Assembly (NCBI GenBank): GCA_049314435.1
Contig: JBMOFD010000001.1
Span: 1-58,262, forward strand
Origin: Chlamydiia bacterium
GTDB lineage: Bacteria; Chlamydiota; Chlamydiia; Chlamydiales; JBMOFD01
Length of the DNA: 58,262 nucleotides
Direction: 5' to 3'
The notes below the pieces were generated by a model that saw only the letters and a program-made list of their open reading frames with translations, was not told the DNA's origin and made no database searches. Both the position numbers and the translations under genes were made by a program. Each line of letters begins with the position of its first letter. Positions within the stretch are counted from its first letter, which is position 1. This document shows, piece after piece, positions 9,233 through 53,481 of the stretch.

Positions 9233-10318
9233 GTGCCTCTATGCATCCTACCGTGTCGCATCTTTCCACCCACCAGCTACGATCCCCAGTCAAAAGATCC
9301 CAAAGAGCAGGCTGCTTCTCTCGACGACCTTGACCTACTCTGGCCATTGCTTGAAAAGGACCTGCGAGCTTCTTGGGAAAGAGAGGCTCTTGCGACCCAA
9401 GCGACCAAACCCGCACGTCATGGTCAGGAGCTGACGGAGGATCCTTGTACACGGGAGAAAGGCTCTTCTTCCACAGAGACTCAAATGCCTCAGGACCCAT
9501 TTGTAGACGCCTTAGCACGTATCCGTTCAACCCTCCTCTCTAACGAAGCCGAGGTGTTCGCCCTACTCAATCCGTTCGGCGTCCTTGAGAGTCTGACCGT
9601 CCAAGACAAGGGGCCTCGATGGGTCGACGATGGCAATGGCCTGCTGCCACCCGTTCTCACTCAACGCGTCCACGCCCTCTCCTTGTCGCGCTATACCTCC
9701 AAGGCGTGGACTCCAGGTGCCATCACGAACGCACTCGTGACTGTAGCCCGGCATCGCCGTGCGGAACGACTGGTAGCCAATGCCACGTCGTTTGCCTTCA
9801 CACAATTTCGAGCTTCCTTCGAACACCTGGGATGGCCCTGCAAGAAGATAGGCTCATGCCGTAAACGTCAGCTGGCCGGTTCGACAGGGACGAGCCGCAA
9901 GAACTCAGTGAATCGTATCTCCTATCGCGTTCTCGACGCCGTGTTGGGCAGTCCTGCCCTCCCCCCCCATTTCACCAAGGGTCCCTGTGACAGCACCCAA
10001 ACCTTGGTCGATCGCCTATTTGCATTCCACTGGTGCCACAAGAAAGAGCGTCGTGTCGACTCGACACCATCAAGGAAACGAGAGAGAGATCCGCAGCTTC
10101 CTTCCAACGATGAACCGCCGCAAAAGAGGCGTCGCTTGGAAAACATCTCCAACGATGCCCATGCCACATTCGACACCGAACCCGAACTCCCTCCGTTCGA
10201 ACCATTGGGGAGCAACCCATGGCCACGAGCCGCTCATTGGACAAGGGTGAGCCATGCTGTACGCAAGGCACTGCAGGAGAAGTTGAACAAGACGCCGGGC
10301 TCGCCACCAGCCAGCTAG
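9233..10318 (+). CDS. hypothetical protein with a eukaryote-type bipartite nuclear localisation signal
   Basis: GTG start with AAGGAG 6 nt upstream. No signal peptide. C-terminal SRKRERDPQLPSNDEPPQKRRRLEN (about 10072..10140). No other recognisable domain. Confidence 0.55.
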   Translation: MPLCILPCRIFPPTSYDPQSKDPKEQAASLDDLDLLWPLLEKDLRASWEREALATQATKPARHGQELTEDPCTREKGSSSTETQMPQDPFVDALARIRSTLLSNEAEVFALLNPFGVLESLTVQDKGPRWVDDGNGLLPPVLTQRVHALSLSRYTSKAWTPGAITNALVTVARHRRAERLVANATSFAFTQFRASFEHLGWPCKKIGSCRKRQLAGSTGTSRKNSVNRISYRVLDAVLGSPALPPHFTKGPCDSTQTLVDRLFAFHWCHKKERRVDSTPSRKRERDPQLPSNDEPPQKRRRLENISNDAHATFDTEPELPPFEPLGSNPWPRAAHWTRVSHAVRKALQEKLNKTPGSPPAS

Positions 10319-10440
10319 CCCGGCCACTCTCCGAATGCCAAATTCATATCATTTATAATTTCGAAACAACCAACACTAACAGAAAAATACACCACTCCGT
10401 AAAATCACTGAGCAACTATTTTGACCAATAGAAAAAAGTA

Positions 10441-13400
10441 ATGAGCTGTTCCTCCATCACCCCTCGTTTGATCCATGTGCCCTATCAAGCGACTCTCGAT
10501 GAGTCCAGGGGATCATCAGAGACCTCCCCAGTTACCATGGGATCAGCAGGCCGTGTAGATCAGCTCTCTCAAGAGTCGTCGATCAACGGGCATACGTCGT
10601 CACCTCAGATAGTCGAGGACGAAGCAGAGTCGCCAGCCAAGCAGAGGTACCTCGGCGGAGTTCTGAAGCGTCGCCTGTCTGTGCTATTGCAGCCTGGTAC
10701 CCTAGATGAGTCTGCTCTGCGGGCTCTTGTATGGCTTCTACAGCCACTAGCTGACCATCCGCTAGCTCCTGATGTTCTTAAAGAGGCATTTGGTAGGCAT
10801 GCTATCCTTAAAAAGGAAGAGCATGACGAGGCCCTTTCGTCTCTGGCAGAGGGTGTGAAATCCCTCATGGCACAGGGCAACTCGCCTCTCCACAGCCTGC
10901 TAGACTTGCTTCTCGCTAATCCCCTCCGAGTCCACTGTCCAGATGCCTTTGGCAGCGCCGCATGGAATGCTTGCCCTTCAAGCGTGGCATCCTCGCCGAT
11001 CTGGGAGCTGCTTCTCAACGAACTCGAGACGGAGTGGCTGAAAGGGAACGACCTTACGGCTTGGAAAACGGCTTCATGGATCCTTTCTCAACAACCTCAT
11101 TCCTCCCCGGGCTGGGTACTTCGCCTAGCCATTGGGTATCTGCAAGGCAGGTCATCTGAACAAGAGGCGACGCCGGTCTGGCCAACGAAGCTGCCACATC
11201 TGGAAGAGTTGACGCCCTTCTTGCAACGAGTGTCGCTCACATCGGACTCTCCCCTCCACGACTTGAGCCGCGTTCTAGTCGAAAAGGCTCCGCACCTTCT
11301 GCCTTCATGGCACCATGCGCTGCGTCACGCTGCTACCCATGCCGAAGCGCCAGCTGAAACTCTGGGGCGGCTACCACAAGCCCTATCAGATGCGCTTCCG
11401 CAGCTTGTACAACAGGACGCGGAGAGTCTAACGAAAGCTCAGAGAGGTCTTCGCAGGTTGCTCAACCCTCAACATCTCGAGGACATGACCACGACGGGAC
11501 TACTAGAGATCTTACAATCGATTGGCATGCATGCGCCTTTCGCCCACCTCAGTCGACCAGTGTGGGAGACACTCTACCTACGTGAGTTCTCTAGAGAGGA
11601 GGCTCTTCAGCTCTTTTCTATCCTCCATATGCTCCCCAATCTAGGGACCGAATCTCCGATTCTCCTGCGCCTGACAGAGGTTCTCTCTTCCGCCTTTGAG
11701 GGGCTTTGTGAGCCCCTACAAATCTGGGCTGCACTACGCCAAGTGCATAGCGCTTTACACCCCGCACGAAGCGACCGAGGTCCACGGACATTGGAACATG
11801 TGCTGCAGGCTCTACGCGTGGTGTGGTCAGCCCATGCTGAGAACAAATCCCTGGCCAAAGCCAGTTGGCAGCTGGCAGTGAACCTAGTTCGAAACCAGCA
11901 GACGCCCATGTCTCCGCAATGGATGGTTCGTTTAGGTATCGAAGCGGCGCTGCTGGGCACTGAAGCGGAATGGCAAGCTGCGTGCACCGCATTGGGATTG
12001 GATGAGGCTGCGCACTGCGCGCCGTCGGGCGGTGACGTTCAAGCGACCTTGACAACTTGGGGATACGCCCTACTGAAGGCACATTCCGAGCTACTCCCCT
12101 TCTGGTGCCAAGAGCTCTCTGCACTGGATCCGACCTCGCCCTGCCTAGCTGTTCGAGTGGCTGTTGCTGAGAGATTTCCCAGCGCGGTAGGGGGAGCATC
12201 ATGGCCATGGCTGGCGCAGATGCTTCCTGAGCTGCCGTGGGAAGACCTCCCCATGCGTCACCTCATCCACACACTACAAGCGTTGAGCCATGTGGCTTGG
12301 GAACCGAAGTGGTACGCGAACAAGCGCAGCCGCTGGACACCGGTGATTGAGGCGAGTCAACCTCTATGGCTCTCCATGGCCGGACGCATGTCACAGGTCA
12401 CACACGATGAGCTGTTGGCAGTTCTTCGTTTTCTCCCCATGATGCAGCGAGTCGAGGCATCGCATGCAGATAGAATAGCGGAGGTGTGGGTACAAGCATG
12501 TCAGGCTGGCAGACCAAGCGACGTCGCTTTTCGGTTACATGAGGTGATGACGCGACTCATCGAGAGAGCTCCTCATCTCATGGGCTCATGGGCCCGCGCC
12601 ATCCGCAAACAAGCTGGTGCTGGAGAGGCCACTAGCCTACGAGAGGGCTGTCAGAAATACGTGGGAAACTTGCTTCAGGCATGTTGGAAGGAATTCCATA
12701 AGCCAGCCAAGAGCGCTCCTACCGACGAACAGCTCCATGGGTGCAAGGAACTACAGAGGATCGTCTCCCTGGATGGCATGATGGGCCAAGATCTGCTGCA
12801 GTGGAGAGCCCTCCTCTTTACGGATACGGCTGACACATGTCCGTTAGAATGGGACCTGGTTGAGAGACTATCCGAACGGAGAGTCTTCTCAGAGCTGCCC
12901 GACGATGTCAGGCAGACGCTCATCCGACGGGTGATGCTCTACACCCACCTCGATGACTATCGCAGGTCCTCCCTGAAGATTCTCATGCAGTTGGTCCAAC
13001 CACCACATGTTCACCGGCTCCCTGCTCCTCAGGACCTCCAACATATCGAGGCTCTATGCATAAGCTGGCTGCTGCCAGAACATCTCTCGCTGCGTGCGCT
13101 CTTTTCTGAAAGGGGCGAGCCTCCAGCGGATCTCGGCATGCAAGCTCTGGCTACTGAGTGGTTCTTGATGACCATCGATTGGATCCCTCGACCTTTGGAT
13201 CGAGGCCTAGAGCTCCTATCCGTGGCTCAGACCCATGCGCGGCTACCACCAGATAAGCTCCTCAGCTTGTTTGGCCGACTGATCCAGAGTGCTACACCAG
13301 CCACACACCGGACGGAGGCCGGAGAGAGCCCAGATCTTCTTGATCTTTCGACCGATCTAGAAGGAACCCTAGCTCCCCTCTATCCAGAACTCGATGCAGG

Positions 13401-15591
13401 GATCGCTCGCTGCAACATCAACGAACGTTTGCATTGGATCGAACAGGGATTCGTTCTGCACCCTTCCTGCGGCTGGCGCTGGCTAGAACAACTGATGGAA
13501 GTACGAGGCTACATCTCCTCCCCTACTCAAAAGGAAGAGAGCGAGCTTAAGCAACGGCTAGGATCAGCCTTCAAGGTGGAACAAGACGCTTCAGGAATCA
13601 GAAGAATCCCCATTCCGGCAGCGGCTGAGCTCCTACTCCTGAGCGGGGGAATTTGGCTGCCTGAATCCTTTGAACAAGAGGGCGCTCTGCTCGATGCTCT
13701 GTCCTCCACAGCACGTGGACAACTCTCTCCTCAAGCTGTCTCGACCCGCCTGGAGACCATACTACGCAAGGCCTGCAGCTCTCCTCTTGAGACCCAAACG
13801 AGCCTGACCGAGCGTTTTCTATCCCTACAGGATGCATTGTGGCGGCTGTCGACCAATCGCGAGCCATTCATTCGGTGGTGGACCACTCTACGACTCATCC
13901 TCGTCTTTCAGGAATACTGCGGAGATACACAGCCTCTGGTCGAGTTCGTTCATGAAATTTCCTCCTACGAATTTGGCTATTTGCAGGACGTGACACCTTT
14001 AAGGCCTTTCATACAATGGCTACGGCAAAACCCTGCGATTCTCCAGCGCCTTCAATCGGAGGGAATCATCCCATCGCGCTTTAGAGCTCAGATCCTTCGT
14101 AATATCTCCTGCGTCTACCTGGGGGTGAATGAGGAAGCGAGCAGTAACGACAGTGATAGCGGAGAAGATGTTTCACGACTCCGAAGACCTGATCCTCTCG
14201 ATCCGCTCCTCGATGTTCTGCTCGAACTCTATGTCAAACATGACGGGCGGGGCACTGACGAGGCTATCGGGAACTTTCGGGCGACTGTGGGCCGGCGAGC
14301 GATCTTGGGCGCGCCTCTTTCCAAAGAGATAGCCCCCCTATTCAAAAGGGGATGCCTGCACATCGTGGAGCAAATATACATGGAGTGGGAAGAAGCGGCG
14401 GCTGCCTACGACTGCGCCGCTGAGCGCCTTCCACCTCAGCCCGCATCACACAGCGATGGGTGTGGCCCCAGCGACTATCGGGTGACCTGGGTTGCCCAGA
14501 TCATCGCCTCGCATCTCCTCAAACCAAAAGCATCACAAGCAAGCCGCTCTACACAGTCGCCATCTGCAAATGCAACGTCGCCGCTCTGTGGCCAGGGCTC
14601 AATGAGGTCCAAGAGCGCAGAAGCTCTCCATGAGGGTCTCACCTTCGCTCGACTACAACCATGGCTACGTCGGCTCCTCCAGCTGAACCCATCCAACTTC
14701 TGGGATCCGGTCTTCCAGGATGCCCTACTAACCTTGAGTCATCAGGCCCTTGAAGGAGAGGATGTTGAGTCCTCAAAATCGCTCGCACGCATCCTAAAAT
14801 CAGCCCTATCCGTCAAGCGTGACCCCACTCCCGACCACATGGCTCAATTTAGGCAGATGCAGATGGCCTTTGCTAGATTGATGGTCCATATACAGATGCT
14901 AGACCCATCGTTTGCACCCGAAGAATCACTCCGTAGTCCTCTTCTCAATACCGTTCTTCTTGGCTGCCAAGATGATGATCTCTTCCGAACGGCACTCGAA
15001 CTGGGACGCAACCAGCGCCTATCAGCTGCCCATCACTTATTGGAGTCGGAAGATTGGATCGATTCGTTCATTCGGGCTCTCTACAATAAAATCCACTGTC
15101 AGCAGCCACTGAACGACACAGAAAGAGCATCATTAGCCGCGGCTCTCATCATCCGCGCTGAGCCCAGAGGTCAACAAGGGATCGACATTCAACGATGGGC
15201 TGCGATCTCATCTGTAGTGGGACTCTTAGAGGACCAGGTCCTCCAGGATCCCCAAGCCCATGTTTTACGTTTGACTGACCTCCTCAAACAGGTCCTGACT
15301 AGTCTGTCGTTCTATGGCAACCTCGTGCACTCGCTGCCTCTCTCTCCGATAGAAAAAAGCGAGCGCAGTGCATCAGCTCTCGACTATTTCTCCTCGATCT
15401 TCACCGGAGGAGGAGGAAAGATGCTCCCCCTGGTCCCAGACTTTACAGACAACCCACTACCAGAGGTGTTCGAGATGGGGCATACCCTATGGCAGAAGCT
15501 CATGAGAAGATCCGACAACGCGGCACTAGTTGCGACTCTCTCCATACGATCCGGAAGAGCTCTCGTGTTAGACACCTCACCCGATGCATAA
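10441..15591 (+). CDS. giant hypothetical protein (1,716 aa), paralog A; alpha-helical repeat architecture
   Basis: Uninterrupted 5.1-kb ORF after an AT-rich intergenic region. Ser/Thr-rich N-terminus without a signal peptide. Clearly collinear with the next gene, for example ALVWLLQPLADHP, GWVLRLAIGYLQ, REFSREEALQLFSILHMLP, ALHPARSDRGPRTLEHVL and LAKASWQLAVNL. Confidence 0.8.
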   Translation: MSCSSITPRLIHVPYQATLDESRGSSETSPVTMGSAGRVDQLSQESSINGHTSSPQIVEDEAESPAKQRYLGGVLKRRLSVLLQPGTLDESALRALVWLLQPLADHPLAPDVLKEAFGRHAILKKEEHDEALSSLAEGVKSLMAQGNSPLHSLLDLLLANPLRVHCPDAFGSAAWNACPSSVASSPIWELLLNELETEWLKGNDLTAWKTASWILSQQPHSSPGWVLRLAIGYLQGRSSEQEATPVWPTKLPHLEELTPFLQRVSLTSDSPLHDLSRVLVEKAPHLLPSWHHALRHAATHAEAPAETLGRLPQALSDALPQLVQQDAESLTKAQRGLRRLLNPQHLEDMTTTGLLEILQSIGMHAPFAHLSRPVWETLYLREFSREEALQLFSILHMLPNLGTESPILLRLTEVLSSAFEGLCEPLQIWAALRQVHSALHPARSDRGPRTLEHVLQALRVVWSAHAENKSLAKASWQLAVNLVRNQQTPMSPQWMVRLGIEAALLGTEAEWQAACTALGLDEAAHCAPSGGDVQATLTTWGYALLKAHSELLPFWCQELSALDPTSPCLAVRVAVAERFPSAVGGASWPWLAQMLPELPWEDLPMRHLIHTLQALSHVAWEPKWYANKRSRWTPVIEASQPLWLSMAGRMSQVTHDELLAVLRFLPMMQRVEASHADRIAEVWVQACQAGRPSDVAFRLHEVMTRLIERAPHLMGSWARAIRKQAGAGEATSLREGCQKYVGNLLQACWKEFHKPAKSAPTDEQLHGCKELQRIVSLDGMMGQDLLQWRALLFTDTADTCPLEWDLVERLSERRVFSELPDDVRQTLIRRVMLYTHLDDYRRSSLKILMQLVQPPHVHRLPAPQDLQHIEALCISWLLPEHLSLRALFSERGEPPADLGMQALATEWFLMTIDWIPRPLDRGLELLSVAQTHARLPPDKLLSLFGRLIQSATPATHRTEAGESPDLLDLSTDLEGTLAPLYPELDAGIARCNINERLHWIEQGFVLHPSCGWRWLEQLMEVRGYISSPTQKEESELKQRLGSAFKVEQDASGIRRIPIPAAAELLLLSGGIWLPESFEQEGALLDALSSTARGQLSPQAVSTRLETILRKACSSPLETQTSLTERFLSLQDALWRLSTNREPFIRWWTTLRLILVFQEYCGDTQPLVEFVHEISSYEFGYLQDVTPLRPFIQWLRQNPAILQRLQSEGIIPSRFRAQILRNISCVYLGVNEEASSNDSDSGEDVSRLRRPDPLDPLLDVLLELYVKHDGRGTDEAIGNFRATVGRRAILGAPLSKEIAPLFKRGCLHIVEQIYMEWEEAAAAYDCAAERLPPQPASHSDGCGPSDYRVTWVAQIIASHLLKPKASQASRSTQSPSANATSPLCGQGSMRSKSAEALHEGLTFARLQPWLRRLLQLNPSNFWDPVFQDALLTLSHQALEGEDVESSKSLARILKSALSVKRDPTPDHMAQFRQMQMAFARLMVHIQMLDPSFAPEESLRSPLLNTVLLGCQDDDLFRTALELGRNQRLSAAHHLLESEDWIDSFIRALYNKIHCQQPLNDTERASLAAALIIRAEPRGQQGIDIQRWAAISSVVGLLEDQVLQDPQAHVLRLTDLLKQVLTSLSFYGNLVHSLPLSPIEKSERSASALDYFSSIFTGGGGKMLPLVPDFTDNPLPEVFEMGHTLWQKLMRRSDNAALVATLSIRSGRALVLDTSPDA

Positions 15592-15749
15592 GCCAGGACT
15601 CGCTCCTTCTAAACATGGCGCTGGTCTCCTCACAGCGCCCCTTCAGATCATTTACAGTTAGACTGGACAACATTTCTATACTACACAAATGGAGTCGCGC
15701 ATAAACTAAATCGGCAAAATTATTTCCTTATTCATGGTTCAAGCAAACG

Positions 15750-18700
15750 ATGCGCTGCTCCCCCACCACTCAGTCAGTAGGTTGTTCCCATCACCTGATC
15801 ACCCATGAATCTAGGGCATCATCGGGGCTGTCTCACGAGGTCCTTGAGCAAGAGGAACAGGTAGATCAGCCCACCACAATGGCTGCAGCACCTGAGCTGG
15901 AGTTGTTGACCGGACAGCGGAGCTGTGGCCAGCGACTGACACGCCTCGTTGAAGCTCTTCTACCCTCTATTGAACCGAATGAAGACGCCTACCGCGCCCT
16001 TGTATGGCTGCTACAGCCTATCGCTGGCCATCCGGAACTTCCGAACGCCTTGCGACAACTCCTTGATCGGAGTCCTTCACCAGAAGGGACAGAGAGGGAT
16101 GCTGCTCCCTCTTCTCCCGCAAAGGGGGCGAAATCTCTGCTGGTCTGGGGGAACTCCGAGCTGCATTCGCTGATCGAGATGCTGCTCGAATATCCTGCCA
16201 ATACCACATGCTGGGGTGCCTCCGGGATGGAACCATGGGATGCTCCCATCGACGGCAACCCATCCAGACCTGCCTGGGAGATGGTCTTCAACAAGCTCGA
16301 GTCGGTATGGCTGGAGTCGGATGAAGACGCTCAGATTGCATGGGAGCTGGCATCGTGGGTCATTGCAAAGCACCCTCAGCCTTCGCCAGCCTGGGTGCTT
16401 CGTCTTGCAATCGGGTATCTGCAACTCAGCTCGTTCATCCCAGCGAAGCCGCCTATCTGGCCTACCAGTTCACCACTTCTCCAAGAACTCACTCCTCTCC
16501 TCTTGAAGGTCGCGCACACGTCCGCCTCTCCTCTCGAAGGGTTCAGCCTTGTCCTTGCCAGGGAAGCCCCGGATCTCCTCCCCTGGTGGCACTACGCACT
16601 CAGGGAGTCGACCAGACATTGTGAATCCTGCGCTGCAGCACTGGAGAATTTGACCCAGGCACTGTCGGAGGGGCTCTCTCCTCAAGGGATGGCCGATCCT
16701 CAGAGTTTGACTGGCTCTTTGATGGCCATAAGCAACATCAATCACCCTTGCCATCTAGAGGCCGCCACAGCGGAGCTCATCGAGCTCCTCACATCGCTCA
16801 GTATGCATGCGCAGTTCGGAGACCTCTGTCGACCCGTATGGGAGGAGCTCTCGACACGTGAGTTTTCCAAAGAAGAGGCTCTTCAGCTCTTCTCTCTCCT
16901 CCATACGCTACCCGATGTAAGCATCGATTCTTGTGCCCTTAAACGGCTGGCAGAGCTTCTTTCTAAGGCCTTTGGAGGGCTAACCGATCCCATGCAAATC
17001 TGGGTCGTGTTGCGTCAGCTACACATGGCCCTGCACCCGACACGAAGTGATCGAGGTCCACGTTCTCTAGAGCATGTTTTGGATGGCCTATGGATCTTAT
17101 GGACGGCTAAGCCGGGATCGTTGGCCAAGGCGAGTTGGCAGCTTGCTGCCAACCTGACACGCGCTCGATCCATTCCCGCTTCTTCTCCTTGGATGACGCG
17201 CCTCGATGTGGGAGCTGTACTCCTAGGCACTCAGGCGGAGTGGCTAGCCGTCTGTACGTCACGCCAACAGAATCTATCTGAGCAGCCGATCATCCCAGGT
17301 GGCTCTCAGCTCGACACCTTAGTGGCGTGGGGATGCGATATGGTGCGTCAGCAGTCCGAGCATCTACCTGCATGGTGCCAAGCGCTTTCGGATCATGCAG
17401 AGGGCTATCCGATCTGCCGCGATGTGCTGCTTCAGGTGGCTCGAGCATTTCGTCTAACGATGGAGCGAGCAGCTATAGGATGGAGCGCTAAGGTGCTTGC
17501 TACGCTCCCTTGGCATGGCACCGACGCACCCACACTGCTCGACATGCTAGATCTCATGGCGGCTCGACATATTCCTCAGAGGTTTGCTGGCAGCACACGA
17601 TTGCTTTGGGAAGCTCTTGCCGACCAGGACATCTCCTATGAGCAGCTCCAACAAGCTCTCACCCATCTACACGTAATGCCCCCCTTGGGTGCTACCGCCT
17701 CTCAACGTCTAAGCCAGAGCTGGATACGAGCCTGTTCAGCGAACAAGGCCAAGGAGTTTGCACAACGCCTACGCGAGGTGATGATCCAGTGCATCGACCA
17801 AGCACCCCATATGATGAAGGCGTGGATCGCGGCCATTCAATCCCAGACGACAAATCCAGCACAATCCCTACAGGATGGCTCTAAGCGCTGTCTGATCGAT
17901 CTCTTTGGCATCCTTTCATCGGTCAAGAAGCCTAGCCAAGCTCTCTTTGAGGCAGGTAGGGAGCTACAGCATGTCACCCAACTCTATGGTCTCATGAGCC
18001 ACGACCTCTTGCGCTGGAGAGCGTTTCTCTTTTGCGAGGGCTCTGGGCCAGATCCTCTGGAGTGGGCAATCTTCGAAACCTGGCTCAAGACCCCAGGTCT
18101 CTTTGGCCAATTTTCAGACGAGAACAAGGCCTCGCTGATCCACCGAGCAACCCTTTATATCGACTCTGATCAGCGAGGTCAGCAGCTGTTGGCACTGAAG
18201 GCTTTGCTCCCCATGCTCGATCCGGCGCGTGTCAAACTCCTCCCAGCCCGTCAGCTTCAGCGGGTAGAGGCTCTATGCTCGGGCCTTCTCCTCCTCATAC
18301 AACCACCCAGTGATGCGCTGGTGGCCTCAGCAGAGGGAGGACGCCTGACAAGTGCGGAGGCACAACGGCTAGCCGCTGAGTGGTTCATCCTGACGGTCGA
18401 TGTCGTGCCACGCAGTGCAGCCAGAAGCATCAGTCTGCTTGAAAGAGCACATGCAGCCATCCAACTGCCTCCGGATAGGCTGCTCAGCCTTTGCCAAACA
18501 TGTCTACAATCGGCTGAGCCCTCTAAAGACCTTCAAGATGCCCTACGCCTGTTCATGCCGCAGCTGGACCAAGCTCTTGCCACCCGCAGTTTTTCCGAGC
18601 ACCTGAGTTGGGTCGACATCGGTCTCCGTGTGGACCCACCAAGTGGGTGGCACTGGCTAGCCGATCTCGCTGTCAGCCTGACCACACTATGGACCCTTGA

Positions 18701-26591: not shown

Positions 26592-29500
26592 ATGACTTCG
26601 AATCCTCTGGATCCCCTTAAGGGGGTTGGGCCACCCGATGCCGCAGGGTCATCTCCTCATGAGGAGCGGCCACCACCACTCGTTCGGGAGGCCCTGCGAC
26701 AGATCTCTGAGGATTTTGCCGCCGCGACGCAGCAATCCACCCCAATGCGAGGGAAGGCCACAGACCAACCTCAGGAAGGAGCCCCTCTTTCGACGACTCA
26801 GGCGGCCACCCAGGAACTAGGGCGGCGCCTATTGCCCCCCCCTTCAGCTACCCATCTGGAAGCCAATTCTTCTATCGCTACAGGGAAGATCAATCTGAGC
26901 TTAACGGACGAGGAATTTTCAGCTCTGCACATCCTCGAAGAAGTGTCTCAACAGCTCCCACCTCCAAGCAACCTGGATGCCTCCGCCTCACTGCTATGGC
27001 TGGGTGACCGCGCTGGCGGTGCCGCGCTCAGTGCTCTTGCTGATAACCCCTCAGGTAGACACTCCTTTCCATCGCTCTCTCGCCTCTTTGATGGAGCTCT
27101 TGGTGTGGCCGATGAACTGCAACTCTGGGAATCACCAGAAACGAGCCAGACACGCATCAGGCTCAAAGCAGCTCAAGACTCTCTGTCCCCAACGGGAGCC
27201 TCCGCGCTATTCATGGCCAGGCGGAAATTTAGATTTAAGGGATTCCAGGAATGGCTGCGCCAGATCAGCACAGCGACTCAACCTAATGCTCCGCCCAAGC
27301 AGAAGAACCTCAGATGTCTGATCGATCGAGAGGCTCTGTATGTAAGGCGTGACCTTGAGCAAAGGGCTCATCTCAACCCAAGCGCTACCTTCACTCGAGA
27401 CGTCTATGCCGCGCTTCCTCAGGAGCTGACATTGGCTTTACAGATACCAGCCGAGCATCGAGGCGTTCCTCTAGCTTATGCCTTTGACCATCCTGGTGTA
27501 GCCGGTCACGCCGTCGTGGTGGAATGGAGCTCCGATGCCAAGAGCCTCACGATATGGAACTCGGGAGCCGGTGCGGAGCCAGCGAACGATGGCAAAGTCC
27601 ATCCCGCGGTTGTCTGGCGATTCCCCGACGAACAGGCTGCTCATTTGGCTGCGCTCTTCCTAGAGCTCTATGAGGTGGATGCCCGTATCAATCTCTCCGC
27701 CCTCCTGGAGGCGATAGGAGCATCAAAGGAGCTCCTCCCCGCAGAACCCTGCAAGCCACAGCGAGGCCCCACCTGCGTGGCTAAGTCCTGGGCTTATTAC
27801 CTCAAAGCCTTTCCTGCAGCCAAAGAGCAACAAACCGAAGTCGATCTCATCAATGCCCTCGTCGATGCGATGGCCGTAGCAACCTTACGTTCTGTGGAGG
27901 GCGCAGAGGCACTCTCCCGCAAGGACCTTGCCACCCTCACGCACTTTGCACGGTATCAAGCAGGCTATCGCTATGGCAAATACCATGGACAGTATCCCCT
28001 TCCCCCTGGACCAACGCCAGCGACCTTCCGCCGTCTTGCTCTGGAGATAGCTGAGCGAGGACTCGCTCCAGAGCCCGTGGAAGCACGCTCCTCTGTCCCC
28101 CTCCTCCCCAAGATGAATGCCCCTGTAGTCATCAGCGTGTACGAACAGAGGGCAGTCAGCCACTTAGGCGGAGCAAACCCTCCCGCTACCTTCGTCATGC
28201 GTCTACCCACAGGGGAACGCTATTCAAGAGACTCCCATGAGGGCGCGCAATCCGTTGCAGACGGCCTCAAGGACTCGCTGCGCTTCCAACTCTCCACTGA
28301 AGAAACACGCAATCTGTGGGAGTTTCTTCTGCAAGATCCCGACGCCACTCGTGAATATCTCTTTAGACACTCCCCTGATACAGGGATCGGCCAACCAGTC
28401 AAATCAGCCACCTTGGAATGGCCCTATTTGGTCCAGCCCAGCGATCCTCTGGGAGTCGCCTTGGGCGCTTTGTCACGATGGGCACCCATATTTGCCGCTC
28501 TCAACAAGCTCTCCCAGGAGGATCAATCCACACTCACCCCAGGCCTTGTGGAAGGTATGCGGACGCTCCTTCCTCTCAAAACCATCGCCTCTCCCAATCA
28601 AGAGGGTCAGGAAGCGATCCTCAAAATCATTCAATTGCTAGTCCCAGGGTATGAAGACACGCCTGTACCAGCAGCGGCTTTAGCCCCTCCAAGCCCGGAA
28701 GTGCACAAGCCATCTCCCCAGACGCTGGGATCGGTCGCTCGATTATTCATCCGGATCCGCCAGGCAATTGCGTCACTGGGGACTAGCTCTCGGAGTGATC
28801 CACCTCCCTCTGGCGCTCCAAAGATCGACGAACGGGTTGAAACATCACTGAATGGCATCCATGACCTTGCTGTTGCCTTCATAGGAGAAAACAGCGCAGC
28901 CATCCAAGCGGCATGCAGGAGGCATCCTAGCGAGGCCCTAAGCGGCAATGTACTCAGCGTTGACTTTTCTGCCGACAACCTACGCACGCTTGATCTCTAC
29001 AGTCTCGACCAAATTTTGAGGTTTGCCTGCGAGCATCTCTATGCCGCACAGGTTGAGTTTACCGGCAGAGCGAGCCCCCAGGCCGCCCCATGCTGGGCTC
29101 TCTGCTGCCTTACGGCCGTGGGCATCGCTACGGAACAAGCCCTACGTCATGACCCGTTCCCCGTTAACATGCACATGGCGAGAGAGGCTCCTGACACTTA
29201 TGAGTTGATTCCAAAGCGCTCACACTGGATCTCCTACGATCAAGAGGCTCCTAGTCCAGGCGTACCCGATAGTCTGCAGACTCGTTCAAGGCTAGCTGAA
29301 ACCCTAGCCGGTCTGAGCGCATTCAAATTCTTTGGACGGACTCAGCCTATAGCAGGGCACGCTAGCGGGTCTTCTGAGCTGCGTCTTGACGGCGAAGCAG
29401 ATCGACATTGGACCGGCATAGGCATCCAAGAGACGTTCGGATTGGAATCCCTTGTACAGTGGCTCTCCGACCCAATCAACATCACGCCTGCTAATCTATG

Positions 29501-32500
29501 TACGCTAGCAAGCTACTGTGATCCACTCAAGGGAATGCCTGAGGCTATTCCAAAATTGCATCCAGTCCTTCGCCTCGCTCCAGAACTCTGGAAGGCTTTT
29601 CTCAAACAGGTGGTCGGGAAATTTCAGGACGCGCCAACCGTGAACTTCCTTAGAAGTATTGCTATGGTCGCGTGGACATTCGACATTGCAGGGCTGCGTG
29701 ATTTGGAGCCACCGAGCTCATCTGCTGGAGAGATACGCGCAGTGTGGTCACAGGCGCTTGAAGACCTTTCAGCTTGCCTAGAGCAGCGAGGAGGCCTGCA
29801 GACCGATGCAGCCGACGCCCTTCTGTTGATGGCCACATGTATCCATGGCTCAGATCCGATGCAGTGGTCTGGGATGGACTCCGAGGCCACCGACCAGATC
29901 CCACCTCTTCTTGAGCGCATCTTCAAAATCTATAACGTGGATGTCGCTCAACCCGACGGAAACCGCCTCATACTCAGCATGATGCATCGCGAACGCCTCA
30001 ATCTGTGCCTAGCCCTCGAGCAGAAGCGTAGAACCGCGGGTGTTACAAATCCGGACACGATCGACCTAGGCGATGGAAGCTTCTTTCTCCTGCCCATTGC
30101 GACTCGCAAAAAGGACTACTTTGCCAACCCACGAGCCTACTCCATCAGCACTCACCACGAGCTCGTCGAATGGGCGCACAAGCGGGAAAAGCAAATGCTA
30201 GCCTCACCGGGCTCCCTCGAGATCATCCTGGACCCGTGGCTCTCCCTGTGCTACAAGACCGGCGGCTGTACCCTTGAACTGGCGACACCGGAGGGTAGTC
30301 TCCTTCCTCGACTGAGCATGGAGCTGTCCGACGAGAAGCTCAAGGAGCTCCTGTCCATGGGAAGCCAGGAGCCATCCACAGCGGGCTCGAGAATGAACAT
30401 GCTCACCAGTGGCGCCTACTTGGGGGCATGCCCACTGTACCCATACCAGGGAGAATCGAGCGATCTAGCTCAGGACATCCGTCAACTCCTCCGCATTCCT
30501 GCCCGTCGACCCGTCATCGCCTCTACGAGTGGAACAAGCAAGCAAGAGCCCTCCTCTTCCAGATCAGCCGGCTCCTCCCTCGGTCTCGGGCGAGTTAGCT
30601 TGGCTCCACCTAAGACTGGTCTTCGGGTTGATGCGTTCTCACTACACTACCTCCGCCCTTATGACGCCTCGCTTGACTTTAGCATCAGGATTTCTCCTGG
30701 GCCAAACGGGGCGGCGCCGATTGAAAGCAGAGCCTTCGTTGAGCCTGGAGGCTCCCCCAGAAAACTCACACAGGTATTCGACTTCCAAGGCCTTCGCATC
30801 GCCGAGCTGGAGCCTGGAGAGGGCTATTCTTTTGTGATCCCTGAGCTCACAGTACAGGGCACAGCATTGCGATTAGGGGGCCATTGGTCAGGCGGAGATC
30901 TTCATCTTGTGACACAGGATGGCTGGGAACTCGACTGGTCCATGCGCGATCGGCTGCCTCTTGTTCTTCGTAACCTTGTCCATGAGGACGACCAGATCGC
31001 CATTCCTATCCGGCGCGGCGACCGCGTGGGCATCCTGTACGGATCCAAAACGGGCGAGTGCGTTCTCCTAGAGGCACATCCGATCACACAGGAGGTTGTC
31101 CCTCTGCATGACCTCGCGCACGATGCCGCGGTGGCCTTTCTAGCCTCCATCCATCGCAACCCGGACCTCGCCCTACAAATGGCTCCGTACCTACGTGGGG
31201 ACCCCGATCTAAGAGAATCGCTGGGCAAAAAACTCAAGGAGGTCTGCGCGGAGCTTCGCCAAGGTCATGGGCTTCTCGTGACGCAGATCATTAAGGCCCT
31301 CGAGCCTCCGCCGCCAGTCAGCTGGAGCGAAGCCAACCGCACTGCGATGCCCCTCCCCCCACAGAGAGCTGTAATCCCGAGCGGCTTTGAATCCTGTCTG
31401 CAGGCGCTCCAACAACCGCAATCGGACGTTCTGGCCGATCGACTGCACTCTCTCTCCAACGAGGTGGGTCTGCTCCACGGCAAAGCGATACAAGAGATCG
31501 AATCCTGGTGGAACGAGCTGCCCTCCGCAGTGCAGGCTCGCCTTAAGTTCAAAACAACGGCCAATTTGGTTGGCTCTCTTCTGCACCTGTGGGTGCAAGC
31601 TGAGCAAGCACAGTCCCTCGTAGTGTACCAAAATCTGTTTGGGCAAGTGTCTCATGTAGGGAGTCAGCCTCTTCCAGAAGCACTGGCAGACCTACATCGG
31701 CGCCTCAGCAACTTGGCCAGTCTGAGCGTGCAGAAACAACTCCTGAACAGGATTTCGCGTTTCGATCTCGCTGCGAACCGGGAGCTCATCTTTAAGGAGC
31801 TACGCGCCGTAGAGAGCCGCCTGCTAGGTGGCGAACGCACTCCAGGAGCTCGCGCTCTACTCGTTCTGGAGTGGCTGCGAGATATACGGGCCTACCCCCA
31901 TCAAGTGGAGATGCTTCAAGCTCTCTGCGATCCGCAGGCGCCCTCTCGGCTGATTGAAATCCCGCCCGGCGGAGGAAAGACCTCTCTCCTCTTGATCGCC
32001 ACGGCCCTGGAAGCCGCATCTCGTGAACGAGCCAGGACTAGTGATCCCCATCCAACGTTAATCGTATTCCCAGATGCTCTTGAATCGGATATGAGACGTC
32101 AGGCTATGGTGCAGGGAATGGAACTGTTAGGAGAGCCGCTTCCTACGGCACCACCGAATAGTCTAGAGAAACCCGAGAACCTGATAGCAGCTGCCATGGA
32201 GTGTGCTCGTAGGGGGCTGCCTCTTCTACTGACCAGTAGTCAATTGCGCCTCACGCAGGGCTTTGCAGCGTATTTAGCCCTTGAACGCGACCAACACCAA
32301 GATGATGCGGGTGCGATGAAGACCTTCCTTGGGTCGATCGTCCTCGTCGATGAGGGAGACCAGAACCTCGACCCCTCCCGCAGCTTCAATATCGAGGTCG
32401 GGGCAGAAGAACCTCTTAGAGAGTCCACAGTGGCCGCTACCTGCCAGCTCATGGATGCTCACGGCGCCCTGCGCTCCTTTGATCTGTCGAAGAAGGAGGA

Positions 32501-35099
32501 ATGCCAAGCGGCGCTCCAGCTATGCCAAGAGGTCCTACCGAGCACGCTCTACTCGAACGAGGAGAAGCACATATTGACCCATGTGGCCCTAGGACTCTGG
32601 AGCAGAACGGAAACTGACACCTGGATCACCGCACTTGGGATGCCGCTGCCAACAGAAGCCAAGATTGACCAATGCCTCCGGAAGAGTGGATCGACACCCG
32701 AACACCATGCAGCAGCTGAGGAGCTTGCCGCTTTGGCCACCATGATCAGGAAATCGATCCCCTCTCTTCAACAGATGAAGTATGGGAGGGACTATGGACC
32801 CGCTTCAGAAACTTCTCTTTCTATCGTCCCCTATCGGGCAGCTAACTGGCCCTCAGATGAAAAGTACATCGACCCATGCCTCATCGCCACAGTCTCCTTT
32901 AACGGATGGCTACAACCCGCATTTTGGACGGCTCCTAGAGTGGAACTTCTCCATCATCAGCTGGTGGATCTCAAGAATAACCCATGGATCACAGCTCTCT
33001 TTCAGGAACTCCCTGCTCTCAGCAGTGGCCCGGGACCATTGCAGACCATCCTAGCCAATCCCTCCAACCAGAAGCTGCGCGCCAAGATGGCGGCACTCCT
33101 CTTACAGACTGAAGCAAGAACGGGCGCACGCCGCATCTCCATTCCTGCAGCGGCTCTGGCCTCCACCTGTTCTAAGTGCATTGCGGTAACCGGCACGGCA
33201 GCCCCCTCCTCTACGCTACCCTTCGGACTGCACCGCGGCGTAGAGCAGCCGGCCTCTCAGATTCAAGAGCGCATGGAGCAACTCTTAGAGCAGTGCCCTG
33301 TCCGAGTTCTACCCACAGGCAATGCATCTCTCACCGACCGCACCTTGCAGATGGCCCGTAACGAATCAGCTTTGAAGCCGCAGTTCTTTCTGGACCCGAC
33401 TGGCAGCCTCATCGATAGAGACGTAGACCGTGCAGTTGACACTCTGTGCGAGATCAACCGCTCAAACGACCCCATGCGTCTTGAGTGGGTCTTGGAGAAA
33501 AAGCACAACTACCCAGTTATGAACCACCGCGATGCACATGGTCAGCTCCACTCGATTCCCAACCTGGCGGCCCTAGCTGGTGAGCAGAAGGTCGCTGTCT
33601 TCGGGCAGGCTCAGTGTCGCGGCACCGATCTGCCCAGAACCAAGGGCGAGATCGCTTGGCTTCTGCTTGGCAACGCCACGGCTGACCTAGGGGCCCGCGA
33701 CTACATTCAGGCCGCCCTGCGCATGAGAGGACTAGAGGATAAGGAACAGGCTCTGGTCCTCATCATGGAGGAGTCTCTCAAACGGGAGCTCGAACACAGT
33801 GGCCCGGGGCTGACCCTCAACCAAGGTTTCCTCCGTCATGCTCAGCAAATCGACAAGGCACGAGACCCGCTCAAGCAGATTGCCATCCTAGATGCAGACC
33901 TGTGCACCTTCGATCTGCTCTTGGCCATGAACGCCCTCTTTTCGGGCGACCCCGCACTCAGGCAAGATCCCTGTGTCAGAGAGATCATCATCGATAGCCC
34001 CGTTCCCCAGCTTTCTAAGATGGTCGAGGCCGATCGAAAGGAATCCTTGAAGAGCCAGTTCAGTCGACAGGTCACTCGACGATTGGATCGCCTGCAGACG
34101 ATCCTAGACGGTAGATCGCTCTCCCCAGAACTCACGAAGCGCTTCGAAGAGATCAGACAAGGCTTGGAGCACTGGAAAAGCTGGCTGCAAACACTCCCCC
34201 TCGAGCAGGAACGTATCCAACCCGAGAAGGTCCAAACAGAACGAGTCCTTGCCACCGCCTCAGAAGTCGCACAGGAGACGGCAACAGAAGCCGAACTCCT
34301 CCTGGAGCGCGAAATCGAGCGCGAGCTAGAGCTCTCTAGATCGGCTCACGAACTGGAAGACCTGTCTCACTACCCCAGGCTTTCTCGGTCGATCCGATCC
34401 TGCGAAGAACTTGCCGGCTTGGTAGGAACACCGGCGCCCTTCGAGATCTCGAGGGTAGACCGTTGCGATGAGATCTTAGGATCTATCCTGCAACGAGCGA
34501 ATCCTGCAGGGGACGTCCCTCGTCTAACCCCTGCCCAGCAGCTCCAAGCCCTAAAGAAATCACTGGTTGAGGAATTGAAGCCATTCCACTTTTCACCAGC
34601 CTCTCAATTCCTGTTTTGCACAGACAAAGGTGAACTTCCGGACCTGATCTCCCTCAGTAGCACGAAACGTCCCAACCCTTACCTCTTCTGGCTACGCGAC
34701 TGTGCGGGTCTGGTGCATGTCGCTGTCCTCGGTCCCTATGAGGCATCGGCCCTTCTTGAAACGGACAACGACTCCTTAAAACGTCTGTCAGAGTCTGGCC
34801 AACTTATGGTCACCCAAATTACGGGGACCCCGATGTCGACGCCCTTTAATCCCCTCCTCACCCCGGAGGCCCTGAATCAGTGGCGGGCAGAAATTGCCCA
34901 CCATCAGCAAGACCTCATACGGATGCGAGCGCTGTATGGCGATCTTACCCTTCGCCAAGATCCTCTAGCCCTTGACTTTCTGTGCGAGCACCCCATGTGG
35001 CGACAAATGCTTCTCGCTAATTTTACAGACAAAGAAGCGATGGCCAGCATCCTCACGGCCCTTATGATGCGTTCACGCAAAATCCGGCTCCCCGACTAG
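26592..35099 (+). CDS. giant multidomain protein (2,835 aa) with an SF2/SecA-like P-loop ATPase core
   Basis: Uninterrupted 8.5-kb ORF with a disordered N-terminus and no signal peptide. Ordered helicase-like motifs: YPHQ...PPGGGKTS (31968..31985), VLVDEGDQ (32340..32363), VTGTA (about 33186..33200), CRGTD (33615..33629) and QAALRMRG (33708..33731). Confidence 0.85.
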   Translation: MTSNPLDPLKGVGPPDAAGSSPHEERPPPLVREALRQISEDFAAATQQSTPMRGKATDQPQEGAPLSTTQAATQELGRRLLPPPSATHLEANSSIATGKINLSLTDEEFSALHILEEVSQQLPPPSNLDASASLLWLGDRAGGAALSALADNPSGRHSFPSLSRLFDGALGVADELQLWESPETSQTRIRLKAAQDSLSPTGASALFMARRKFRFKGFQEWLRQISTATQPNAPPKQKNLRCLIDREALYVRRDLEQRAHLNPSATFTRDVYAALPQELTLALQIPAEHRGVPLAYAFDHPGVAGHAVVVEWSSDAKSLTIWNSGAGAEPANDGKVHPAVVWRFPDEQAAHLAALFLELYEVDARINLSALLEAIGASKELLPAEPCKPQRGPTCVAKSWAYYLKAFPAAKEQQTEVDLINALVDAMAVATLRSVEGAEALSRKDLATLTHFARYQAGYRYGKYHGQYPLPPGPTPATFRRLALEIAERGLAPEPVEARSSVPLLPKMNAPVVISVYEQRAVSHLGGANPPATFVMRLPTGERYSRDSHEGAQSVADGLKDSLRFQLSTEETRNLWEFLLQDPDATREYLFRHSPDTGIGQPVKSATLEWPYLVQPSDPLGVALGALSRWAPIFAALNKLSQEDQSTLTPGLVEGMRTLLPLKTIASPNQEGQEAILKIIQLLVPGYEDTPVPAAALAPPSPEVHKPSPQTLGSVARLFIRIRQAIASLGTSSRSDPPPSGAPKIDERVETSLNGIHDLAVAFIGENSAAIQAACRRHPSEALSGNVLSVDFSADNLRTLDLYSLDQILRFACEHLYAAQVEFTGRASPQAAPCWALCCLTAVGIATEQALRHDPFPVNMHMAREAPDTYELIPKRSHWISYDQEAPSPGVPDSLQTRSRLAETLAGLSAFKFFGRTQPIAGHASGSSELRLDGEADRHWTGIGIQETFGLESLVQWLSDPINITPANLCTLASYCDPLKGMPEAIPKLHPVLRLAPELWKAFLKQVVGKFQDAPTVNFLRSIAMVAWTFDIAGLRDLEPPSSSAGEIRAVWSQALEDLSACLEQRGGLQTDAADALLLMATCIHGSDPMQWSGMDSEATDQIPPLLERIFKIYNVDVAQPDGNRLILSMMHRERLNLCLALEQKRRTAGVTNPDTIDLGDGSFFLLPIATRKKDYFANPRAYSISTHHELVEWAHKREKQMLASPGSLEIILDPWLSLCYKTGGCTLELATPEGSLLPRLSMELSDEKLKELLSMGSQEPSTAGSRMNMLTSGAYLGACPLYPYQGESSDLAQDIRQLLRIPARRPVIASTSGTSKQEPSSSRSAGSSLGLGRVSLAPPKTGLRVDAFSLHYLRPYDASLDFSIRISPGPNGAAPIESRAFVEPGGSPRKLTQVFDFQGLRIAELEPGEGYSFVIPELTVQGTALRLGGHWSGGDLHLVTQDGWELDWSMRDRLPLVLRNLVHEDDQIAIPIRRGDRVGILYGSKTGECVLLEAHPITQEVVPLHDLAHDAAVAFLASIHRNPDLALQMAPYLRGDPDLRESLGKKLKEVCAELRQGHGLLVTQIIKALEPPPPVSWSEANRTAMPLPPQRAVIPSGFESCLQALQQPQSDVLADRLHSLSNEVGLLHGKAIQEIESWWNELPSAVQARLKFKTTANLVGSLLHLWVQAEQAQSLVVYQNLFGQVSHVGSQPLPEALADLHRRLSNLASLSVQKQLLNRISRFDLAANRELIFKELRAVESRLLGGERTPGARALLVLEWLRDIRAYPHQVEMLQALCDPQAPSRLIEIPPGGGKTSLLLIATALEAASRERARTSDPHPTLIVFPDALESDMRRQAMVQGMELLGEPLPTAPPNSLEKPENLIAAAMECARRGLPLLLTSSQLRLTQGFAAYLALERDQHQDDAGAMKTFLGSIVLVDEGDQNLDPSRSFNIEVGAEEPLRESTVAATCQLMDAHGALRSFDLSKKEECQAALQLCQEVLPSTLYSNEEKHILTHVALGLWSRTETDTWITALGMPLPTEAKIDQCLRKSGSTPEHHAAAEELAALATMIRKSIPSLQQMKYGRDYGPASETSLSIVPYRAANWPSDEKYIDPCLIATVSFNGWLQPAFWTAPRVELLHHQLVDLKNNPWITALFQELPALSSGPGPLQTILANPSNQKLRAKMAALLLQTEARTGARRISIPAAALASTCSKCIAVTGTAAPSSTLPFGLHRGVEQPASQIQERMEQLLEQCPVRVLPTGNASLTDRTLQMARNESALKPQFFLDPTGSLIDRDVDRAVDTLCEINRSNDPMRLEWVLEKKHNYPVMNHRDAHGQLHSIPNLAALAGEQKVAVFGQAQCRGTDLPRTKGEIAWLLLGNATADLGARDYIQAALRMRGLEDKEQALVLIMEESLKRELEHSGPGLTLNQGFLRHAQQIDKARDPLKQIAILDADLCTFDLLLAMNALFSGDPALRQDPCVREIIIDSPVPQLSKMVEADRKESLKSQFSRQVTRRLDRLQTILDGRSLSPELTKRFEEIRQGLEHWKSWLQTLPLEQERIQPEKVQTERVLATASEVAQETATEAELLLEREIERELELSRSAHELEDLSHYPRLSRSIRSCEELAGLVGTPAPFEISRVDRCDEILGSILQRANPAGDVPRLTPAQQLQALKKSLVEELKPFHFSPASQFLFCTDKGELPDLISLSSTKRPNPYLFWLRDCAGLVHVAVLGPYEASALLETDNDSLKRLSESGQLMVTQITGTPMSTPFNPLLTPEALNQWRAEIAHHQQDLIRMRALYGDLTLRQDPLALDFLCEHPMWRQMLLANFTDKEAMASILTALMMRSRKIRLPD

Positions 35100-46798: not shown

Positions 46799-46805
46799 CG
46801 CGGTC

Positions 46806-52146: not shown

Positions 52147-52527
52147 AAAGGCCGGGAGGATATTAAGCCGGATTCTGTCCGCGCCCATTACAGGCACGTG
52201 GCCATCATTCCTCTTGGGAGAGTGTCGCCACTCTCCTCCAGCGATGTTCGGGGCGAATGCGGAAGCACATTGACCGCCCGTACTCTTGCTTCGGATAGGG
52301 TTTGCCGCAGACCCTCTCTCAAGGATCCGGCCTCCTCCTAAAGGAGGCGTTTCAGCCTGTCTGCTTCTTGCGAAGCAGCGGACTACTTGCTGTTGCACTT
52401 TCCGTAGCCTTCAAGCGCTGCAAGCAGCGCCCTCGGCCCCCAGTCTTTCACTGGTATCCCTTCCTGCGAAGTCCAGACTTTCCTCTGCAACCTGACGGTC
52501 ACAGCGATCGCCTCTCCTCCCGGCTTC
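52147..52527 (-). ncRNA. rnpB: RNase P RNA, bacterial type A
   Basis: Minus strand reads GAAGCCGGGAGGA...GAGGAAAGTCTGGAC...AGGGATACCAGTGAAAGACTGGGG...GGAAAGTGCAACAG...GGCAAACCC...ACAGAATCCGGCTTA...TCCTCCCGGCCTT. This matches the conserved CR-I, CR-IV and CR-V blocks of E. coli M1 RNA, with a P1 stem closing the 5' and 3' ends. End coordinates are good to within a few nt. Confidence 0.88.
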
Positions 52528-52545: not shown

Positions 52546-53316
52546 TTATGAGCTTGCCGCGGTCGTACGGCGACGGCGTTTCTTCGCTGTAGCCCCAGCA
52601 TCTTCAACCGCTGGCTCTTCCCAGAAGAGAATGCGGCTGCAATGTTCACAGAAGACCAGACGATCTCCCTTGCGGACCAAGTTCTCATGCTGAGGCGTCA
52701 GCACAATATGGCATCCAGCACAGGAGCGATTCTCAATGGGAACGACCACCCGATCGCGCTTATTATGAAGTAATTTTTCATAGATCCCCAGGAGATCACG
52801 CGGAGCATCCTTCACAAGAGCCTCGCGCTGACCAAGGAGCTCTCGTCCCTCCTGATTGAGTCGACGCACGCTCTCTTCGATCTCAGCTTCTAATACTTCG
52901 CTGTTCTCTGCCGAGGCTTGCATGCTCTTCTTGATCTTCTCGAGGATCTCTTCCTCAACAGTGATACGGTCAAGCAGTTCACTCAGTGCTGTTTCCTGAG
53001 ACTGGCGGTCGCGTTCTGCTCCGTTGATCTCCGAAGTGATAGCACTGAACTCTTCGGCCTTTTTCAGAGAGAGCTGCTGGCTCTCCAGACGCTTAATCTT
53101 GGCCGCGACCTCTTGGATGCGAGCCTCTCCCTGATTCCCCTGCCTCTTGAGGTCCGAGATCTCTAGCTCTTTTGCCGCTAGCTGATGACGAAGCTCCTCA
53201 CGAAGACCGCGAATGCTCTCGACCTCTTGCTGACGATCGCGCTTAAGCCTCATCAGGCGGATCATCTTCATATCTAGATCTTGGATCTCGAGAATCGCCT
53301 TGAGAATGTCCAACAT
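52546..53316 (-). CDS. COG1579 zinc-ribbon / coiled-coil protein (Chlamydia CT398-type)
   Basis: Coiled-coil body, then the C4 zinc ribbon CAGCHIVLTPQ...VFCEHCSRILF and a basic tail KKRRRR. I prefer the start at ATG 53316 (MLDILKAILEIQDLD). Confidence 0.8.
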   Translation of the reverse strand: MLDILKAILEIQDLDMKMIRLMRLKRDRQQEVESIRGLREELRHQLAAKELEISDLKRQGNQGEARIQEVAAKIKRLESQQLSLKKAEEFSAITSEINGAERDRQSQETALSELLDRITVEEEILEKIKKSMQASAENSEVLEAEIEESVRRLNQEGRELLGQREALVKDAPRDLLGIYEKLLHNKRDRVVVPIENRSCAGCHIVLTPQHENLVRKGDRLVFCEHCSRILFWEEPAVEDAGATAKKRRRRTTAASS

Positions 53317-53481
53317 GCCGTACCCCGGGGAAGACGAATGCTCAAAGCATACGTCGTTACGAGAAAAAATCAAGCCATTTTGGACCGGAAGGGGTTAACA
53401 CTCAAGGCCGAAAATCGAGTTCTTTCTCGAAGAGATCCTCTGGTCTCCCTTTAGAAGGTGACCCAACCAAGATCGAGCAGG

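Follow-up and report, generated by a model that had tools for sequence, protein, structure and literature searches.

The window analysed here is the entire 58,262-bp contig JBMOFD010000001.1, assembled from a Chlamydiia bacterium, and our subject is a pair of giant genes within it, here called A and B, which lie one behind the other on the same strand. They are tandem protein-coding paralogs, known only from one high-GC freshwater chlamydial lineage. Both open reading frames (ORFs) are found exactly where a preliminary description of the sequence had placed them:

10441..15591, + strand: paralog A, 1716 residues, predicted to be all-alpha, with neither signal peptide nor membrane segment
15750..20720, + strand: paralog B, 1656 residues

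The two proteins had been described as collinear yet diverged, and BLASTP bears this out with a pairwise alignment of 1648 columns in which 32% of positions are identical (E=0). Identity is unevenly distributed, being 40-57% at residues 100-600 of A and 15-25% beyond residue 1000, and a stretch of about 80 residues in A (~1017-1095) has no counterpart in B. Tryptophan is abundant (2.7%) and is kept at 34 of 47 positions (72%), against an identity of 35% overall.

Each protein had also been thought to contain an internally repeated module, marked by three short motifs. The motifs are readily located, at residues 283, 548 and 710 of A (nucleotides 11287, 12082 and 12568) and, for their counterparts in B, at residues 273, ~536 and 685. 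The repeat is real and statistically supported, but it proves to be a single two-copy duplication of ~265 residues rather than an array of many copies; the two copies amount to about one third of the protein. Its elements are as follows:

10993..11793, + strand: repeat copy I of A (residues 185-451), from hhalign self-comparison with controls
11287-11325, + strand: motif APHLLPSWHHALR, A residue 283, in copy I
11710-11745, + strand: site CEPLQIWAALRQ, A residue ~424, in copy I, a fourth site absent from the preliminary description
11794..12720, + strand: repeat copy II of A (residues 452-760), from hhalign self-comparison with controls
12082-12120, + strand: motif HSELLPFWCQELS, A residue 548, in copy II
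12568-12606, + strand: motif APHLMGSWARAIR, A residue 710, in copy II
16266..17933, + strand: the counterpart in B of both copies (~residues 173-440 and 441-728), holding APDLLPWWHYALR, SEHLPAWCQALS and APHMMKAWIAAIQ, with coordinates transferred through the A/B alignment

The repeat is not visible in a BLASTP self-comparison, and profile-profile comparison is needed to reveal it. When the A/B alignment is compared with itself in this way there is one off-diagonal match, of A residues 452-759 with 189-469 (266 columns, E 7e-5). Comparison of the non-overlapping halves 185-451 and 452-760 with hhalign gives a score of 43.1 (E 1.5e-5, probability 79%), as against 14.3±2.7 for column-shuffled controls (maximum 23.4), 17.3 for a reversed control and 12-18 for seven windows of 300 residues from elsewhere in the protein. 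If each copy is halved in turn, to give units u1 to u4, the first and third units pair (z 5.4), as do the second and fourth (z 7.9), but u1-u2 and u3-u4 do not (z≤0.5). A sub-repeat of ~130 residues in four copies is therefore unsupported, and the repeat is best described as one duplication of ~265 residues. The motifs at 283 and 548 are in register within it, occupying homologous positions, while that at 710 pairs with the additional site at ~424; the likeness of motif 710 to motif 283 is marginal (E 0.005-0.04, z 4.1). No residues of A past 760 join the repeat. Since Smith-Waterman comparisons recover the same relationships within B and across the paralogs (B2-B3 z 7.9, A2-B3 z 8.1), the internal duplication is older than the duplication of the gene.

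The evolution of the pair can be followed in a sister strain. An exhaustive HMMER (phmmer) search with residues 1-1200 of A against 1.84 billion representatives retrieved a sole relative, the protein P0003 (84% identity), encoded on an 8.2-kb ENA metagenome contig referred to below as L001. Gene order on L001 is TPR-o361-A-B, as in the window, where two genes on the same strand precede A:

8063-9055, + strand: TPR gene, downstream of a secretin gene
9233..10318, + strand: o361, an orphan of 361 residues that immediately precedes A and belongs with it to one lineage-specific block

The only homolog of o361 is its L001 ortholog, 93% identical; its listed start codon is GTG and the true start is uncertain. 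Coding DNA of L001 and the window is 90-93% identical (7-10% different). The ratio of non-synonymous to synonymous substitution rates (dN/dS) between the two, by the Nei-Gojobori method, is 0.077 for the TPR gene, 0.34 for o361, 0.26-0.30 for A and 0.37 for B (measured over the first 299 codons), so that A and B evolve 3-5x faster than the neighbouring TPR gene. Taken by windows of 120 codons along A and B, the ratio ranges from 0.11 to 0.70 and is below 1 in every one; it is lowest (0.11) where the paralogs are best conserved and highest (0.57-0.70) in the first ~120 residues. Both genes are thus kept under purifying but relaxed selection. In L001 A looks split, but by a scaffold gap of ten N and not by a frameshift, and pseudogenisation of A in that strain was rejected. 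Between A and B themselves the ratio was computed as well, but it is uninformative because dS is saturated at ~2.0.

An independent Logan assembly of run X1, a freshwater metagenome, contains positions 10382-22500 in one 29.7-kb contig at 17.8x, spanning A, B and der, with the upstream flank at equal depth. A and B are therefore real, selected genes belonging to the same genome as their neighbours. One might have suspected non-functional ORFs, whether decaying pseudogenes, the product of a chimeric assembly or frames left open by chance, given that homologs are confined to one sister strain, that the runs found hold no expression data and that GC content at third codon positions (GC3) is below that of housekeeping genes: it is 0.57-0.60 in o361, A and B, as in the other orphans of the window, against 0.65-0.72 in the housekeeping genes of the contig. 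This suspicion is hardly credible in the face of two unbroken frames of ~5 kb, the gene order shared with L001, the retention of 72% of tryptophans in the A/B alignment and the even depth across A, B and der; the constraint seen in all dN/dS windows against an ortholog independently assembled from another sample, together with the single Logan contig, effectively refutes it.

The preliminary description could match the proteins to no named family and saw no catalytic motif in them, and more extensive searches lead to the same conclusion. Neither a family nor a catalytic domain was found for A, B or o361 in Pfam (hmmscan, E≤0.1) or NCBIfam, nor a family among the anti-phage defence models of PADLOC, and known chlamydial effector families such as DUF582 gave no Pfam match to A or B. 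A profile search of PDB sequences returned only a spurious 57-residue match (E 0.039), and a word-indexed search of 5.8 billion clusters with A, the C-terminal alignment and o361 as queries returned only proteins of the window and their L001 orthologs. Scans with the A/B alignment of the contigs of GTDB species genomes, and two scans of JGI metagenome contigs, gave no match; an exact look-up of A in an assembly index found it not on record. Finally, all ORFs in 68 fetched loci, among them the 10 kb surrounding der from ~60 chlamydial metagenome-assembled genomes (MAGs), were scanned with a hidden Markov model built on A and B, and only L001 matched. Large ORFs that adjoin der elsewhere were considered as diverged relatives and rejected, since each encodes an SNF2 helicase, a secretin or an ankyrin-patatin protein. 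The two further giant orphans in the window, of 2835 and 1395 residues, are likewise unrelated to A and B. The family thus spans one lineage, with L001 and its P0003 the only occurrence outside the window, and no profile or structure search assigns it to a well-known housekeeping family. As a sequence family A and B are new; the class to which they belong, orphan helical proteins from intracellular bacteria, is a familiar one.

Their helical nature, also part of the preliminary description, is reproduced in AlphaFold2 models, albeit of low confidence, the input being only three sequences per alignment. Residues 70-1020 of A are predicted to be wholly helical, with a mean predicted local distance difference test score (pLDDT) of 61.8 and a predicted template modelling score (pTM) of 0.39, as are residues 1091-1716 (pLDDT 54.5; pTM is given as ~0.4 for the models); the helices are short, at 10-18 residues. 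Foldseek matches the first model best to transportin-3, CRM1, SF3B1 and CAND1 (E ~1e-4, TM-score 0.13-0.21) and the second to CAND1, SF3B1 and importin-alpha, not significantly (E≥0.015, TM-score up to 0.36). The best matches are thus solenoids of the HEAT/ARM type, but such low TM-scores obtained with weak models indicate a local likeness of helical hairpins and no specific fold. The models support a generic alpha-solenoid architecture for A and B, and nothing more specific.

Karyopherin-type HEAT solenoids head the Foldseek list and, with o361 bearing a stretch that resembles a bipartite nuclear localization signal (SRKRERDPQLPSNDEPPQKRRRLE, RKRER-x15-KRRRL), this leads to the bold idea that o361, A and B form a module acting on host nuclear transport, with A and B as karyopherin mimics and the co-inherited o361 as a partner targeted to the nucleus, together hijacking or rewiring nuclear import or export in a protist host. 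We consider this very unlikely. More modestly, A and B, for which there are no relatives in ~15 billion proteins, may found a sequence family of giant effectors, and perhaps a fold.

Neither protein has a signal peptide, as previously noted, or a membrane helix. In both A and B the Kyte-Doolittle mean over 19 residues peaks at 1.43, in single isolated internal segments, and by hydropathy the first 70 residues contain no hydrophobic stretch; the N-termini are polar. The region in question is:

10441..10650, + strand: N-terminal region of A, ~70 residues, a candidate secretion signal, with pLDDT <50

Alignment of the N-termini of A, A', B and B' shows an M-x-C-S start followed by a conserved ESRxSS, and in all four proteins the first 19 residues are rich in Ser, Thr, Pro and Cys and have no acidic residue. 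Judged by rule of thumb, such polar, acid-free N-termini are compatible with a type III secretion signal.

The surroundings of the pair were then compared with those in other chlamydiae. Besides the genes already listed, and der itself at 21144-22487, the window contains:

2383-8193, + strand: GspD-type secretin, 1936 residues, unusually large, with seven Secretin_N stretches and an N0 domain
22585-26292, - strand: SNF2-family helicase, 1235 residues, downstream of der on the opposite strand
26592-35099, + strand: orphan ORF, 2835 residues, with no Pfam or NCBIfam family and a negligible PADLOC match
52148-52523, - strand: bacterial class A RNase P RNA (207.5 bits), the only Rfam match in the window at the gathering threshold
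53482-57669, - strand: orphan ORF, 1395 residues, with no family match, adjoining the CdsZ gene

The setting in an intracellular bacterium, proposed earlier, is supported by the host's placement in the Chlamydiota, which are obligately intracellular. The ORF at 52546-53373 (- strand) matches CdsZ above the curated cut-off, that at 44615-46822 (- strand) matches the chlamydia-specific family TIGR03076, and the best matches of Der are nearly all to chlamydial MAGs: it shares 55-63% identity with Der from dozens of Chlamydiota MAGs, no sequence being closer, and the best value to a GTDB species genome is 63%. Contig GC, at 56.5%, exceeds the range of 25.9-49.8% reported for chlamydial MAGs (PMC8242063). 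This suggests that the contig comes from an unsampled high-GC freshwater chlamydial lineage. Family-less coding sequence (o361, A, B and the ORFs of 2835 and 1395 residues, GC3 0.57-0.60) occupies ~41% of it, and a search of its 58 kb with ARAGORN yielded no tRNA genes.

Orthologs of the secretin (1200-1570 residues) and of the TPR gene adjoin der in more than 30 of the chlamydial MAG loci fetched. In the six loci with the orientation of the window the interval from the TPR gene to der measures 2.5-4.5 kb and contains a YidD-like ORF (6/6) and a SulP-like ORF (5/6); in the window it measures 12 kb and is occupied by o361, A and B. The site is thus variable, and the block o361-A-B is what fills it in this lineage; since its GC equals that of the contig, the block is not a recent import. 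The SNF2 helicase has orthologs upstream of der and on the same strand in most other chlamydial loci, so that its position and strand here point to a local rearrangement in the window's lineage. The listed secretin and TPR ORFs overlap by 131 bp, and the start of one or the other is probably mis-set.

Two further occupants of the neighbourhood of der may be mentioned. In another chlamydial MAG the same TPR-der site contains an ORF of 683 residues with a Ser-rich N-terminus (L003, 6128-8176, + strand), and lineage-specific genes may have landed at this site repeatedly. In a Chlamydiales MAG a protein of 1642 residues with a patatin phospholipase domain and ~12 ankyrin-repeat matches is encoded directly upstream of der (L050, 4722-9647, + strand), and looks like an effector-type protein.

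The proximity of the secretin raises the question of whether A and B might serve a type II secretion system of which it forms part, either as substrates or as components. They are on the same strand and within 2.3 kb of it, and its score against TIGR02517, 349.5 bits, is just below the cut-off of 351.35. Type II substrates, however, need Sec or Tat, for which the N-terminal hydrophobic segment is lacking, the hydropathy maximum of 1.43 being internal; moreover A and B match no family of Gsp components, and the secretin is conserved elsewhere in the absence of either. We regard a type II role as highly improbable.

The non-coding DNA flanking A has the following elements:

10319..10440, + strand: spacer upstream of A, 122 bp, 36% GC, a probable promoter and 5' leader
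15592..15749, + strand: spacer between A and B, 158 bp, 44% GC, with a conserved 3' half that is probably the promoter and leader of B
15617-15639, + strand: hairpin with a 7-bp stem after the stop codon of A (GGCGCTG...CAGCGCC)

Both spacers are AT-rich relative to the contig and neither has a match to a Shine-Dalgarno sequence, as had been noticed before; the latter feature is not distinctive because most genes of the window are without one too. Only one base in the last 61 bp before the ATG of A differs from L001, as against 7-10% in coding DNA, and conservation is similar in the 3' half of the A-B spacer. The hairpin is retained in L001 with one G-U pair, and is not a canonical terminator since no T-run follows it. 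A consensus scan finds a weak sigma-70-like match at 10376-10405 that is not above chance, and overall the scans for promoters (3 promoter-like sites where shuffles have 4.7±2.5) and terminators (13 terminator-like sites where they have 8.3±3.1) give numbers near chance. A and B probably each have their own promoter. In the Logan contigs of run X1, positions 10284-10411 form a bubble of two alleles (5.2x and 7.6x) that differ at six bases, three of the variant bases matching L001; the sample seems to harbour two strains.

What, then, might A and B do? The interpretation we favour, which we hold tentatively and judge somewhat short of probable, is that they are non-enzymatic helical scaffolds, secreted by type III and interacting with the host. 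Confinement to a single lineage within a phylum whose members are obligately intracellular, duplication, fast evolution and the lack of a Sec signal together fit a type III secreted, host-interacting protein best, and the core genome of chlamydiae includes a type III system (PMC8242063). The history of the pair began with duplication of the internal ~265-residue segment in an ancestral gene, followed by tandem duplication of the whole gene, long before the split from sister strain L001, and by retention of both copies under selection that was purifying but relaxed. In the resulting architecture a short, presumably flexible N-terminus leads into a conserved, Trp-rich N-terminal half containing the duplicated module and then into a strongly diverged C-terminal half, the full length being predicted as stacked alpha-helical hairpins in a solenoid of the HEAT/ARM kind. 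The chlamydial type III system would export both proteins into the eukaryotic host, where they would serve as binding scaffolds, the conserved N-terminal halves perhaps providing a shared interaction or targeting function and the divergent C-terminal halves allowing A and B to engage different host partners. The term 'effector' is thus applied to them from context.

Several observations weigh against this interpretation. The only + strand ORFs of at least 100 residues between 9056 and 21143 are o361, A and B, so that there is no candidate gene for a type III chaperone in that interval (type III substrates often, though not always, have one next to them), and the TPR gene upstream, which was weighed in this connection, accompanies the secretin in other chlamydiae; nor does the window contain genes for the type III apparatus. 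The solenoid is predicted from weak models, whose Foldseek matches as a whole have TM-scores of 0.13-0.36 and root-mean-square deviations of 12-35 Å, and Pfam profiles for HEAT, ARM or related repeats do not match A or B at E≤0.1. A dN/dS of 0.3 would equally fit any weakly constrained cytoplasmic protein and, in a search for expression data, only DNA sequencing runs were found, none of RNA.

Some of these same points would suit cytoplasmic scaffolds that are not secreted and have no direct contact with the host, acting in development, cell division or nucleoid organisation or as an accessory of the GspD secretin. The missing chaperone gene and the want of a demonstrable secretion signal are what such proteins would lead one to expect, as are purifying selection over the whole length, a location on the same strand immediately after gspD-TPR and before der, and a GC content with no hint of recent foreign origin. 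Yet in more than 30 chlamydial MAGs the secretin, TPR and der genes are found together without any A/B-like gene, so that A and B are not a conserved partner of the secretin, and the pair has conserved AT-rich upstream regions of its own. Core cellular scaffolds are also seldom limited to one species-level lineage, and seldom evolve 3-5x faster than their neighbours. A purely cytoplasmic role appears unlikely, if deserving of serious consideration.

A parallel to A and B is offered by giant helical Dot/Icm effectors of Legionella pneumophila. The paralogs SdhA, SdhB and SidH are alike mainly in their N-terminal ~700 residues and diverge thereafter (PMC10624908). A and B resemble them in being paralogs of more than 1,400 residues from an intracellular bacterium, with a conserved N-terminal and a divergent C-terminal part. 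There is, however, no sequence homology, either in the exhaustive search with residues 1-1200 of A or in the search of PDB sequences, and for a query model of low confidence the list of the 50 best Foldseek matches (26 with E≤0.001) does not include the structure of SidH (8QFS). The Legionella proteins use a type IV system and a C-terminal signal, where A and B, from another phylum, would use type III and an N-terminal one; SidH binds tRNA and EF-Tu. The Legionella paralogs are not known to form a tandem pair.

Other comparisons are similarly partial. Long arrays of short paired helices in the A models recall the HEAT/ARM solenoids of karyopherins, CAND1, SF3B1, importin-alpha and beta-catenin, but these have repeats of ~40 residues in many copies, and the repeat detected in A and B is of ~265 residues in two copies. 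Among chlamydiae, the large cytotoxins of the lymphostatin/LifA type, present in some Chlamydia, are likewise encoded by very large, tandemly duplicated and lineage-variable genes; the cytotoxins carry glycosyltransferase and cysteine-protease domains, whereas A and B are about half their size and, according to Pfam and NCBIfam, have no such domain. Inc proteins and type III effectors of chlamydiae are lineage-specific, fast-evolving, often paralogous and without a Sec signal, all of which can be said of A and B, but the bilobed hydrophobic domain of Inc proteins (~40-60 residues) is missing, the hydropathy maximum being that given above.

At present A and B are an orphan family without a testable biochemical activity, and belong on a list of candidates rather than among discoveries. 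They do, however, provide a clean example of the origin of genes, in which an internal duplication was followed by tandem duplication of the gene and then by asymmetric divergence. Environmental chlamydiae have large and poorly understood accessory genomes that are thought to encode adaptation to the host (PMC8242063). If A and B are secreted, they would constitute a new family of giant effectors in an unusual, high-GC chlamydial lineage.

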